Shown piece by piece: positions 2,811 to 46,001 of a stretch of DNA of 64,000 nt (position 1 is its first letter; each line of letters opens with the position of its first letter). The notes beneath the pieces were generated by a model. The model was not told where the DNA came from and searched no databases. It saw nothing but the letters and a program-made list of their open reading frames with translations. The DNA is from Akkermansia muciniphila (GTDB lineage: Bacteria > Verrucomicrobiota > Verrucomicrobiia > Limisphaerales > BJHT01). Where the stretch lies: the NCBI GenBank assembly GCA_945861535.1, contig CAMAUZ010000012.1, forward strand, positions 11,908-75,907, in the 5' to 3' direction. The translations under genes and the position numbers were made by a program.

Positions 2811-3860
2811 TCAGCCGGCGAAGCTCAGGACGACGGAGCGGACGACGAGTTCCCAGCCGTCCACGAGGACGAAGAGGAGGATTTTCAGCGGCAGGGAAAT
2901 GGTCATGGGCGGCATCATCATCATGCCCATGCTCATGAGCACGGTGGCGACGACGAGGTCGATGAGGATGAAGGGGATGAAGAGGAGGAAGCCCATTTGA
3001 AAGGCGGTGCGCAGTTCGCTGATGATGAAGCCGGGGACGACGACTTTGAGGGGGAGTTGGTCGGGTTCGGTGGGTCCCATTTTTGCCAAGCCCATGAAGA
3101 GTTCGACATCTTTGGGGCGGGTCTGGCGCATCATGAATTCGCGGATGGGACCGGAGGCGCGGTCCATGGCCTCGGTGCCGGTGATGGTTTTGGCGAGGAG
3201 CGGTTGGAGGGCGTCACGGTCGATGCGTTCCCACGTCGGAGCCATGATGAAGAAGGTGAGGAAGAGGGAGAGGCCGACGATGATTTGGTTGGGCGGAGCG
3301 CCTTGCAGCGAGAGGGCGGAGCGGATGAAGGAGAGCACGATCACGATGCGCGTGAAGCAGGTCATCAGGAGAATGATCGAGGGCGCGAGCGTGAGGATGG
3401 TGAGGGTGAAGAGGACCTTGATGGCGACATCGACATCCTGGACCTGGCCCGCGCCGTCGAGGCCGACGTTGAGGCGGAAGGGGGAGTTGACGCCGGTGGG
3501 GGCGGTGCCGGTCGCGGGGGCGGGCGAGGCGAGGGGGCCGAGGAAATCGAGCGGCGCGAACGGGGCGGCGGGGGGGACGGGGGCGAGGGGTTGGGCGGTG
3601 AGGGTGAGGGGCGCGAAGTGGGTGAGGAAGGCGAGGAGGGCGGCGACGGCGGTGGAGTGGAGCGGGCGGCGGGCCGCCGGTTCGCCTAAGCTTCCGGCGG
3701 CAAGTTGGCGCCGAGCGCGGGTGGGTAGGGCGCGTCTGTCCTCAGCGCGCCGGTGGGAGGTCCACACGCTCGCGGCGCGCTGAGGACAGACGCGCCCTAC
3801 CCACCGCAGTTCGGTCCGCTTAAAACCCCGAAGGAGCGCATTTTTCAGGCGAGCGCTCAT
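2811..3860 (-). CDS. fliP: Flagellar export apparatus protein FliP, with an unusual about 70-aa basic N-terminal extension that contains a REP element
   Basis: The C-terminal about 250 aa are unmistakably FliP (..LTILTLAPSIILLMTCFTRIVIVLSFIRSALSLQGAPPNQIIVGLSLFLTFFIMAP..). ATG at 3860-3858 overlaps the fliO TGA (ATGA). No ATG/GTG/TTG lies in frame between the REP and the conserved core. Confidence 0.85.
   Translation of the reverse strand: MSARLKNALLRGFKRTELRWVGRVCPQRAASVWTSHRRAEDRRALPTRARRQLAAGSLGEPAARRPLHSTAVAALLAFLTHFAPLTLTAQPLAPVPPAAPFAPLDFLGPLASPAPATGTAPTGVNSPFRLNVGLDGAGQVQDVDVAIKVLFTLTILTLAPSIILLMTCFTRIVIVLSFIRSALSLQGAPPNQIIVGLSLFLTFFIMAPTWERIDRDALQPLLAKTITGTEAMDRASGPIREFMMRQTRPKDVELFMGLAKMGPTEPDQLPLKVVVPGFIISELRTAFQMGFLLFIPFILIDLVVATVLMSMGMMMMPPMTISLPLKILLFVLVDGWELVVRSVVLSFAG
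3721..3804. repeat. REP family R2, copy 1 (30-bp inverted arms), inside the fliP 5' coding region
   Basis: gtgggtagggcgcgtctgtcctcagcgcgc ... gcgcgctgaggacagacgcgccctacccac. The second copy at 26947-27030 is intergenic. Confidence 0.9.
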
Positions 3861-4462
3861 GGTTTGCGTTCGCGGAGGTGCTGCCAGATTTCGCCGAAGG
3901 TGGCGGCTCGGGGCTGGGCTTCGGGCGGGGAGTCGTCGTCGGGGAGGTGGCTGAGGAGGGAGACGCCGCCGGGGGAGGTGCCGAGGAGGATGCGTTGGTG
4001 CTGGTAGCCAATGACGTAGATGGCGTGGCGTTGGCCGAGGGCGCGGACTTCGAGGACGTTGAGTTTGCTGGGCCGGCCGCGGTTGAGGGTGAGGCGCTGC
4101 CAGTTGCGGAAGATCCAGACGGCGCCAAGGAAGAGCGCGAAGACGAGGGCGAGCGCGCCGAAGACGCGGAGGACGGAGAAGCTGACGTCGGGGACGGTGG
4201 GTGACGCGGACACGGCGGAGGGGCGCGCGGGATCGGCGGCGAGGAGGGTGAAGGGGAGGGACAGGGAGACGGAGAGAAGGGAGAGAAGGCGAGACGAGTG
4301 GTCTCGAAGATGGCGAGTGGGTTGTGCGGCGCGAGGGGAGGGCGGGACAGAACACCGCAGAGAGGGGAAGGGCGCAGAGGGGCGGCGCGCGGAATTTTTC
4401 AGCACCTGCGCGGGTTCGTGGCTGCTGCGGGCGGGACGCCCGCGCTCCGGGGGCGGGTTCAT
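3857..4462 (-). CDS. fliO: Flagellar biosynthesis protein FliO/FliZ-like (start uncertain; alternative GTG at 4213)
   Basis: C-terminal part VLRVFGALALVFALFLGAVWIFRNWQRL...KLNVLEVRALGQRHAIYVIGYQHQRILLGTSPGGVSLLSHL fits FliO (TM plus conserved soluble part). ATG 4462-4460 overlaps the fliN TGA (ATGA). The N-terminal region runs through the R7 half copy. Confidence 0.55.
   Translation of the reverse strand: MNPPPERGRPARSSHEPAQVLKNSARRPSAPFPSLRCSVPPSPRAAQPTRHLRDHSSRLLSLLSVSLSLPFTLLAADPARPSAVSASPTVPDVSFSVLRVFGALALVFALFLGAVWIFRNWQRLTLNRGRPSKLNVLEVRALGQRHAIYVIGYQHQRILLGTSPGGVSLLSHLPDDDSPPEAQPRAATFGEIWQHLRERKP
4391..4450. repeat. REP family R7, half copy
   Basis: ggaatttttcagcacctgcgcgggttcgtggctgctgcgggcgggacgcccgcgctccgg aligns with 2732-2791. 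Confidence 0.6.
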
Positions 4463-22870: not shown

Positions 22871-22899
22871 CGGGTGACGGGTGGCGGGAAGCGATCTCG

Positions 22900-23036
22900 G
22901 TAGCGCAGGTTTCCAAACCTGCTGTGTCGCCGACTTCTAAGTCGGCGGCGCGTTGGCCAATTCAGGCGTCCAGAAAAGTCCCGCCGGCCGCAGGTTTAGA
23001 AACCTGCGACACAGCAGGCTTGGAAGCCTGCGCTAC
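22900..23036. repeat. REP family R1, copy 2
   Basis: Near-identical to 2195-2331. Confidence 0.9.
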
Positions 23037-26791: not shown

Positions 26792-26946
26792 GGTCGGGGA
26801 CAGTAGGTAGCGGTTTCGGGCAAGTCAAACGTTTGGAAAATCTTGGAAATCTCCGCCATGGCGCGAGTGAGACTGAGGAAGTTTTAAGTGTGGAGTGTTC
26901 AGTTTGAAGGGGGAACAAATGCGGAGCGGGCGGGGGCACGGGGTTG

Positions 26947-27030
26947 GTGGGTAGGGCGCGTCTGTCCTCAGCGCGCCGGTGGGATGTCCGCACCTCCGCG
27001 GCGCGCTGAGGACAGACGCGCCCTACCCAC
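26947..27030. repeat. REP family R2, copy 2 (intergenic)
   Basis: gtgggtagggcgcgtctgtcctcagcgcgc ... gcgcgctgaggacagacgcgccctacccac, as at 3721-3804. Confidence 0.9.
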
Positions 27031-27068
27031 CGCAGTTCAGCCGACTCAAACCAGGCGGGGAACCGCAA

Positions 27069-39774: not shown

Positions 39775-39797
39775 CCTGAATATCTCATGCTCATTTT

Positions 39798-39917
39798 GTA
39801 GCGCAGGCTTCCAAGCCTGCTGTATCGCGGGTTTCTAAACCCGCGGCGCGCCCGGCGAGGCCGACACCCTGCCGACTTGGAAGTCGGCGACACAGCAGGT
39901 TTGGAAACCTGCGCTAC
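39798..39917. repeat. REP family R1, copy 3 (inverted orientation)
   Basis: gtagcgcaggcttccaagcctgctgtatcgcgggtttctaaacccgcgg...cgacttggaagtcggcgacacagcaggtttggaaacctgcgctac. Confidence 0.9.
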
Positions 39918-40030
39918 AAGGATGGGCGGCCTGCGGCTGCGATGGGACTATGAAATATCCGGGTTAGCGGTCGTGCCCCGGCCCGCGTTGGGGCGCAGCT
40001 CAGTTTCGTGCCCGCGGCTTGGCGTCCGCG

Positions 40031-40178
40031 CCAGCCGGGTGGGGCAGGCATCCTTGCCTGCCAGTGGGCGGGGCATCCCTGCCCCGTGTTCCCGGTTCCG
40101 CGCGGGTGCTCGGCCAATGGAACCGGGCGGCAGGGCTGCCGCCCGAGCTGGCAGGCAAGGATGCCCGCCCCACCCGGC
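40031..40178. repeat. REP family R3, copy 1
   Basis: ggtggggcaggcatccttgcctgccag...ggggcatccctgccccgtgttccc ... gggcggcagggctgccgccc..ctggcaggcaaggatgcccgccccac. Copy 2 is at 44555-44700. Confidence 0.9.
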
Positions 40179-40321
40179 ACGCGCGCGTACCGCCGCAAGT
40201 TTCCTCGAGCACGGCACCCGTGCCTGCCGAAGGTTGCAGGAAACCGCGATGCGCCCCCTCCCGCGTTGCCGCCGGGGAAATTGGACTCGCAAGCCCCGGA
40301 CGGGAGCCGCAGTTTCCCGCG

Positions 40322-44482: not shown

Positions 44483-44554
44483 TCCGAATCCCGAAGTTGG
44501 GGAGCGCACCCGACCCGGGTGTGGCGGGCTGCGCCCGCGGGTGTGGCCTCCGCG

Positions 44555-44700
44555 CCAGGCAGGTGGGGCAGGCATCCTTGCCTGCCAGTTCACGGGGCAT
44601 CCCTGCCCCGTGTTCCCGCTGCCGCCGTGGCCTGTCCGCCATGGAAACGGGCGGCAGGGATGCCGCCCGAACTGGCAGGCAAGGATGCCTGCCCCACAGC
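44555..44700. repeat. REP family R3, copy 2
   Basis: Aligns along its length with 40031-40178. Confidence 0.9.
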
Positions 44701-44774
44701 CCCGGTGGGCGCGCCTCCGCGTGTTTCCTCCACAACCGCGCGCTTGCCTGCTGATGCCTGCAAGAAACTGAGCT

Positions 44775-46001
44775 GTGCCCGCAGTCTCATCGACGCCCGG
44801 AAAATGCTGTTGTCCGGCCGGGGTGTCCCGCTACGCTCCACGCGCTTTGAGCCGGGTTTTCATCAGTTACCGTCGGGAGGATGATGCGCACTGTGCGCGC
44901 GTGCGTGACTTGGCCACGCGTCTGGAGCGGACCGGCGTGCAGGTGGTGCTGGACGAGTTCGCGCAGTCCCGCGAGTTCCACGGTGGCGGTCCGAACGAAG
45001 GCTGGCCGCGCTTGAGCAAGCAACAGGCGGGCGATTCCACGCACAAGATTCTCATCATCGCCAGCGCCAGTTGGTTTCGCTGTTACGAGGGCAAGGAGCT
45101 TCCGGGAACCGGCCTCGGCGCGGCGGCGGAGGCGGGCGTGATCGAGCAGCGACTTTACAACGCCGCCGGCATCAGCGCCGACATTCGCATCGTCACCCTG
45201 GCGGCGCTCGATCCCTCCGCCGTGCCGCTCGACCTCCAGCGCTACCAGCGCTTTGCCGATCCCGAGAGATTCTCCGATCTCGTCCACTGGCTCACCGGCA
45301 CGGCCCCCGTCATGGCGGCCCCCGCCGTGATCGCCGAGTGGCCCGACACGCCGCCGCCGCTGCACTGGCCGGTGGCGGATCACACCGCGGTGCGCACGGC
45401 GTTTGCGTGCCTGCTGACCCGTCCCGCACCGTGTCGCTTCCTGCTGCTGCGCGGTTCGAGCGAGGCGGGCAAGAGCCATCTCACGCGGCAGATGTTCGGC
45501 AATGCCCTGCGCCTGCCGGGGCTGGCGTGTGGCCGCTACGACTTCAAGGGAACCACCGGCGGCGACCGGGAATTGTCCGCCTTCGTGCAGAATCTCGAGG
45601 TGCCGCTCCCGGCGGGCGGTCGCGCCCTCGCCGACGGTTTCAGCCACATCCTGGCGGCGCTCAAGCAGCGGGCGCAGCCGGCCCTGCTGATTTTCGACAC
45701 GTACGAACTGGCCGGCGGCGAGGCTCGCGACTGGGTCGAGAAACAACTGCTCCCCTCCCTCCTCCGCGCTCCGTGGCTGCGCGTGGTGATTGCCGGCCAG
45801 CAGGTGCCGGATTGTGCCGCCGCCGCCTGGGCCTTCCCGGCACCCACCCCGCTGCAACTGGTCGCGCCGCCGCCGGAGGATTGGCTGGCGTTTGGTGAAG
45901 CTCACAAACCGGGCCTGACCTTGGATTTCGTCCGGCAGGCGCACGCGTTCTGCGGTGGCAGGGCCAGCCTGCTGGCGCAACTCCTCGGCCCCGCCACGTA
46001 G
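44775..46001 (+). CDS. SEFIR/TIR-like domain fused to a STAND (NB-ARC-like) P-loop NTPase; N-terminal half of a split NLR-like protein
   Basis: VFISYRREDDAHCARVRDLATRLERTGVQVVLDEF..GWPRL..KILIIASASWFRCYE (SEFIR/TIR pattern). Walker A LLLRGSSEAGKSH (nt 45453-45476), Walker B-like ALLIFDTYE, RVVIAGQQ, and a terminal FCGGRASLLAQLLG. In-frame start options are GTG 44775, GTG 44823 and TTG 44847 (MSRVFISY). Confidence 0.7.
   Translation: MPAVSSTPGKCCCPAGVSRYAPRALSRVFISYRREDDAHCARVRDLATRLERTGVQVVLDEFAQSREFHGGGPNEGWPRLSKQQAGDSTHKILIIASASWFRCYEGKELPGTGLGAAAEAGVIEQRLYNAAGISADIRIVTLAALDPSAVPLDLQRYQRFADPERFSDLVHWLTGTAPVMAAPAVIAEWPDTPPPLHWPVADHTAVRTAFACLLTRPAPCRFLLLRGSSEAGKSHLTRQMFGNALRLPGLACGRYDFKGTTGGDRELSAFVQNLEVPLPAGGRALADGFSHILAALKQRAQPALLIFDTYELAGGEARDWVEKQLLPSLLRAPWLRVVIAGQQVPDCAAAAWAFPAPTPLQLVAPPPEDWLAFGEAHKPGLTLDFVRQAHAFCGGRASLLAQLLGPAT

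Follow-up and report, generated by a model that had tools for sequence, protein, structure and literature searches.

The question raised by this locus is whether a palindromic repeat lying in the 5' end of fliP, a gene of the flagellar export gate, is read as part of the protein, and if so whether it has been recruited to a function there or is merely carried along. We have analyzed a window of 64,000 nucleotides from the MAG of an uncultured freshwater Verrucomicrobiota, the minus strand of which carries fliM, fliN, fliO, fliP, fliQ and fliR. The features that bear on the question are the following.

2811..3860, minus strand: fliP coding sequence, 349 aa from the fliO-coupled ATG
3857..3860, minus strand: ATGA overlap of the fliP start with the fliO stop, reading AAACC-ATGA-GCG; translational coupling
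3857..4462, minus strand: fliO, with an ATGA overlap with fliN; its 5' end holds the in-frame dispersed repeat 4391-4448
3720..3805: REPIN-like palindrome REP-A, 86 nt; a loop of 20 nt (3753-3772) between perfect 33-nt arms at 3720-3752 and 3773-3805
26946..27050: intergenic second REP-A copy whose loop differs; identity of 90% over 105 nt

The palindrome, its gene and its family

The identity of the gene follows from its domain and its operon. Pfam places the FliP domain (PF00813) at residues 153-342 of the 349-aa product (E 8e-80) and finds FliO just upstream, and relatives show the order fliM-fliN-fliO-fliP-fliQ-fliR. The product also matches solved FliP structures (E 3e-69), aligned from residue 130 on. 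Its ATG (3860-3858) overlaps the TGA of fliO. REP-A occupies codons 19-47 and is read as W20..T47. The perfect 33-nt core is enclosed in a wider inverted repeat with 42-nt arms that are 90% complementary (3711-3752 and 3773-3814). The window contains four occurrences of the arm sequence, two arms in each of two copies, whereas 100 shuffles gave none. The second copy is located between a deacetylase-like and a polyprenyl-synthase-like gene, both on the minus strand, and the likeness between the two copies reaches 3824. Most of what the original prediction said of this structure stands: the ATG on the fliO stop (the minus strand reads ATGA at 3860-3857), the palindrome inside the 5' end of fliP, the intergenic position of the other copy, and the translations given for the element (ELRWVGRVCPQRAASVWTSHRRAEDRRALP) and for the hydrophobic segment downstream (AVAALLAFLTHFAPLTLTA). 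The inverted repeat it described is real, but the length of 84 bp becomes 86 nt for the palindrome, and the subfamily extends over about 105 nt.

As RNA the palindrome is very stable. For the 78-nt core the fold energy is -72 kcal/mol, a single arm forms a GGCGCG...CGCGCC stem of its own at -16.3 kcal/mol, and the 191-nt region around REP-A has a fold z of -8.9 against shuffles. No T-tail follows the hairpin and a terminator scan found no site at that position, which rules out an intrinsic terminator there.

Other repeats are present in the window. Dispersed GC-rich repeats are found at the fliQ-fliR (2190-2331), fliP-fliQ (2732-2789) and fliN/fliO (4391-4448) junctions, with further copies at 22895-23036 and 39797-39922. 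The first ~20 codons of fliO (MNPPPERGRPARSS...) run through the repeat at 4391-4448, the other copy of which (2732-2789) lies in the spacer from fliP to fliQ; the fliO start MNPPPERGRPAR is common to the related loci L001, L002 and L006, and the window adds about 28 residues after MNPPPERGRPAR. Elsewhere, a tandem array at 46712-47142 has three copies of a unit of 143-144 nt, with 86-89% identity between them, and a composite element of ~260 nt with nested GGGGCAGGCATCCTTGCCTGCC-type palindromes occurs in two copies 4.5 kb apart (40020-40281 and 44544-44805).

The spread of REP-A was followed in metagenomes and in reference genomes. For the former, contigs from four metagenome runs of lakes and fresh water were mapped on the fliO-fliP locus. 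In the source lake run (X1) the summed contig depth of the REP-A arms is 215-406 times the locus baseline. Hundreds of contig pieces in the metagenome runs terminate in the arms, and it is the loop that contains the variable positions. The fliP-REP-A junction is supported by runs X1 and X2, where the unique flank on the fliP side and that on the fliO side both lead into an arm at the depth of the organism itself. Run X9 contains a strain that lacks REP-A at this locus. An exact-pattern scan of the metagenome contigs for further alleles of the fliO-fliP junction gave no matches. The exact 26-nt arm pattern occurs in at least 62 stretches of reference genomes, and nearly all of these, among the matches listed, come from Limisphaerales, Pedosphaera or other Verrucomicrobiota MAGs; single MAGs hold at least 14-16 separate loci. 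A comparison of 21 paired copies shows conserved 29-nt arms (GGTAGGGCGCGTCTGTCCTCAGCGCGCCG), loops of 19-25 nt and unrelated flanks. Flanks that are coding-like in one frame were found around none of 19 copies in other genomes, by a crude GC3 test that is weak in lower-GC genomes. Neither the two window copies nor those in other genomes are flanked by a direct target-site duplication, and an empty site with the same flanks was not found.

Exact arm copies, some at many loci, are also present in MAGs labelled Proteobacteria, uncultured Klebsiella, Akkermansia muciniphila and Polaromonas. These oddly labelled bins (L016-L068, RFSE01; L023/L052/L066, CAYZJP01; L030, L046 and L047) are probably mislabelled or contaminated.

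In Proteobacteria, REP doublets form hairpins and are mobilised by RAYT transposases, which are IS200/IS605-like Y1 transposases encoded by genes flanked by REPs; REPs are extragenic by name. As judged from its sequence, the anatomy of REP-A resembles that of a REPIN, in which two small palindromic REP repeats are paired in inverted orientation. As in Proteobacterial REP/REPIN elements, each arm is a short imperfect palindrome, two inverted arms separated by a short variable spacer form a long hairpin, and many dispersed copies per genome have conserved arms and unrelated flanks and lie usually between genes. REP-A differs from them in its Verrucomicrobiota host and in the position of the fliP copy, which is intragenic and, as argued below, very probably translated.

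The fliO-fliP junction in relatives

We compared 89 FliP loci: this window, 8 loci obtained via protein look-ups and 80 from a protein-seeded metagenome scan. A 4-nt overlap start, in frame with the FliP core and following an ORF of fliO length, is present in 69 of them (64 ATGA, 4 GTGA and 1 TTGA). Between this start and the PSIILLMT anchor lie 30 to 171 codons (median 83); in the window the figure is 159. The other 20 loci comprise six that run off the contig, six that lack the anchor motif, seven with short ordinary leaders, and L147, where a stop lies one codon ahead of the anchor. Among these 20 loci without a confirmed overlap, no non-coding fliO-fliP spacer holding a palindrome was found.

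REP-A itself is present in L001, the FliP of which is 90% identical to that of the window and which comes from another sample and another assembly; it occupies the same site in the same frame. This is the outcome of the junction comparison that the original prediction had called for, and no empty-site allele emerged from it: the closest relatives without REP-A (L002-L004) have a different leader with its own palindrome. Unrelated in-frame palindromes lie in the same leader segment of L002-L004, L005/L006, L071, L079, L080, L088 and L120. With REP-A there are at least 8 independent palindromes, all behind an in-frame, stop-free coupled ATG. If the frame were not under selection, the chance of meeting this condition would be 1/3 per element, or about (1/3)^7 for seven cases. 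About 60 of the 69 overlap loci have no large palindrome at the site.

Two of these relatives show peculiarities of their own. In L002 (2947-3085) the public gene call starts fliP at a second ATG, inside the 5' arm of the palindrome. The conserved ATGA lies 18 codons further upstream, in the same open frame, so relatives differ in where automatic annotation starts the gene at this junction. In L079 (827-1110) part of the hydrophobic core of the FliP signal peptide (GFLACWPAGLLAF) is encoded by the 3' arm of another palindrome, of the GCCAGCAGGCC type, and repeat sequence may supply functional signal-peptide residues in that locus.

REP-A is free of stops in only one of three frames per strand, and the fliP copy uses that frame. 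The fliP frame is also open for 237 codons upstream of the ATG; because long open frames arise by chance in GC-rich DNA, openness alone is weak evidence. The RNA runs contained only conserved FliP-core fragments of relatives and REP copies from other loci, none of them spanning the junction. We accept the leader as translated because of the open frame in combination with the L001 copy, the conserved start and the in-frame palindromes of the relatives. On these grounds the leader, including REP-A, is very probably translated, and we infer that initiation takes place at the coupled ATG. The proposal that the element belongs to the translated 5' end of fliP is therefore supported by the coupled start in 69 of 89 loci, by the use of the only stop-free frame, by the identical placement in L001 and by the lack of any start-like codon downstream of the element.

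Constraint on the leader and the predicted signal peptide

The original prediction went further and described the element as domesticated. Its fate was examined by comparing the window with L001 codon by codon.

FliP core, 223 codons: 3 non-synonymous and 24 synonymous-only; third positions account for 23 of the 28 nucleotide differences
Two leader flanks, 40 codons: 10 non-synonymous and 6 synonymous-only; first and third positions differ equally often
REP-A element, 28 codons: 1 non-synonymous and 2 synonymous-only; 96% nucleotide identity

As judged by this comparison, the leader flanks evolve without amino-acid constraint. Their nucleotide identity is 77-87%, against 96% in REP-A, and their GC3 values of 0.61 and 0.73 are not coding-like, against 0.86-0.96 in neighbouring coding sequence. 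The arms of REP-A stay identical across different genomes, and the 96% identity of the element fits this pattern; REP-A is thus conserved as DNA and not as peptide. Domestication of REP-A in fliP is not supported by these substitutions, with 10 non-synonymous against 6 synonymous-only codons in the flanks and 3 against 24 in the core.

The position of the element offers a reason why it would be tolerated. Ahead of the FliP core the product has the elements of a putative signal peptide.

3657..3860, minus strand: signal-peptide n-region, residues 1-68, with 17 K+R and 4 D+E
3594..3656, minus strand: hydrophobic core, residues 69-89 (TAVAALLAFLTHFAPLTLTA), from a hydrophobicity scan

The positive-inside rule favours a positively charged cytoplasmic n-region, and the stretch encoded by REP-A contributes 7 K+R versus 2 D+E to the charge of this one. 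An n-region of 68 residues is unusual for a Sec signal peptide; in 106 homologues the median is about 18 residues, with a tail to 106. The predicted signal-peptidase site is A89|Q90. Its residues, L-T-A|Q, fit the (-3,-1) rule of small residues at such sites, and Q90 is invariant in 15 aligned homologues. About 28-35 of the 89 presequence residues come from the repeat.

The signal peptide of Salmonella FliP is cleaved (PMC5542437). It shares with the predicted one a basic n-region, a hydrophobic core and, at the predicted cut, a small residue and then Gln, after which mature FliP begins, but it has a length of only ~21-22 residues (PMC5542437), against a predicted presequence of 89 here. Homology of A89|Q90 to the Salmonella cleavage site is not upheld, the structural alignment beginning only at residue 130, and the assignment consequently rests on conservation within the clade and on the (-3,-1) rule. 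On that basis the presequence is probably removed at A89|Q90.

These observations suggest the following course of events. A copy of REP-A would have landed in the 5' leader of fliP, between the coupled ATG and the hydrophobic core, and stayed. Ribosomes ending fliO at UGA would restart at the overlapping AUG and read the hairpin in its sole stop-free frame into an Arg-rich peptide of ~28 residues (WVGRVCPQRAASVWTSHRRAEDRRALPT). This peptide would lengthen the cytoplasmic n-region, for which a net positive charge and the absence of a stop suffice. The n-region would then leave with the signal peptide at A89|Q90, so that mature FliP is unchanged. The selective filter would act on the survivors by keeping them in frame, without a stop, basic and not hydrophobic, and it would demand no new function. 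We therefore favour, as the likely reading, that REP-A is a tolerated, essentially neutral passenger in the fliP leader and not a domesticated part of the export gate. A point against this reading is the hairpin itself, which begins ~46-55 nt past the fliP start codon and, at -72 to -91 kcal/mol, might impede translation.

Persistence of the palindromes may also be something other than purely neutral. The n-region would then be a recurrent landing pad for palindromes in Verrucomicrobiota, where the hairpin, lying just past the coupled restart, could tune the amount of FliP relative to its assembly chaperone FliO and where an arm such as that of L079 may supply signal-peptide residues; we regard this version as unlikely. 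A related proposal, compatible with the passenger reading, is that the RNA hairpin is useful in itself, either throttling elongation after the coupled restart and so setting the FliP:FliO level, or shielding the fliLMNO message. Intergenic REPs in E. coli operons do protect upstream message from 3' exonucleases. The best argument for such a role is that at least 7 unrelated palindrome families occupy the same position in relatives; the great stability of the fold and the better conservation of REP-A than of its flanks between the window and L001 point the same way. However, about 60 of the 69 related loci do without a large palindrome there, the conservation of the arms is a general property of the family, the arms of which are identical across genomes with unrelated flanks, and no terminator-like tail lies 3' of the hairpin. 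Moreover, every junction of this operon has dispersed repeats, so the recurrence of palindromes is most simply explained by available unconstrained sequence. We consider a useful hairpin unlikely.

Alternative starts and comparison with known insertions

The passenger reading takes the whole element to be translated, and the start codons available within the leader bear on this directly. The statement that no ATG, GTG or TTG precedes the FliP core holds from the end of the element to the hydrophobic segment, but one such codon is present within the element.

3765..3767, minus strand: in-frame GTG, codon 32, in the hairpin loop; the sole alternative canonical start

If fliP started wholly or partly at this GTG (3767-3765), translation would cover the 3' arm alone (VWTSHRRAEDRRALPT...), leaving the 5' arm as untranslated spacer and the start codon displayed in the loop of the hairpin. 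The codon is in frame, lies in a single-stranded loop, where a start codon can be accessible, and is conserved in L001. Its conservation is nevertheless expected, since the whole element is kept, and the 20 nt upstream of it (GTCCTCAGCGCGCCGCGAGC) contain no Shine-Dalgarno-like sequence. The other palindrome families offer no comparable start in a loop, yet they keep the ATGA in frame and the leader open. We consider initiation at the loop GTG improbable, and even then half of REP-A would be translated.

An entirely untranslated leader would require a non-canonical start just before the hydrophobic segment, with REP-A in a non-coding spacer. The GC3 of the flanks and the lack of amino-acid constraint would suit such a spacer, but a composition of this kind is also expected of recently inserted, unconstrained sequence. 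Between REP-A and the hydrophobic segment there is no in-frame ATG, GTG, TTG, CTG, ATT, ATC or ATA. The frame of the ATGA is intact and without stops in each of the independent leaders with a palindrome that we examined, at the chance level given above, and the loci without the overlap have short, ordinary leaders. This alternative is highly improbable. A repeat-induced misjoin that placed the palindrome in fliP can be dismissed as extremely improbable: short-read assemblers do break at this repeat and Logan contigs end inside the arms, but in two runs unique flanks on both sides enter the arms at the organism's depth, the independent L001 assembly has the same structure despite ~13-23% nucleotide divergence in the flanks, and the frame is intact.

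Insertion of palindromic repeats in frame into genes is an established phenomenon, and a review (PMC10969869) describes it both for the palindromic elements of Rickettsia (RPEs; Ogata et al. 2000) and for ERIC, BOX and MITE sequences within genes (Delihas 2007 and others). As they are described there, RPEs and REP-A are both short palindromic mobile repeats found in frame in genes, housekeeping genes included, and both are read as extra peptide where the protein tolerates it. RPEs measure ~100-150 bp, are AT-rich, occur only in Rickettsia and often lie on the surface of mature folded domains, whereas REP-A is 78-105 bp long, GC-rich and situated in the n-region of a signal peptide, a part that is probably removed by cleavage. 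The two are unrelated in sequence, and only their behaviour is alike; exact matches to the REP-A arm came overwhelmingly from Verrucomicrobiota MAGs. The ERIC, BOX and MITE fusions of the same account share with REP-A a small non-autonomous repeat with an open frame that is fused to a host ORF. These elements have terminal inverted repeats, as which the arms of REP-A could count, and often target-site duplications, none of which is visible at REP-A. REP-A behaves like RPE, ERIC, BOX and MITE insertions, yet it appears to be a sequence member of none of these families.

The finding leaves knowledge of the export-gate mechanism unchanged. For annotation it carries a warning, as the public call for L002 illustrates: automatic gene calls choose different starts at this junction. 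The occurrence of at least 8 palindromes at the same fliP site provides a comparative way to call true starts in GC-rich, repeat-rich MAGs. What is mildly new is the niche, the n-region of a signal peptide behind a coupled start, which has been colonised repeatedly across a phylum. An n-region that is cleaved off asks only for positive charge, an intact frame and no stop, and REP-A in fliP would be a natural example of where selfish palindromic DNA survives inside an essential gene.
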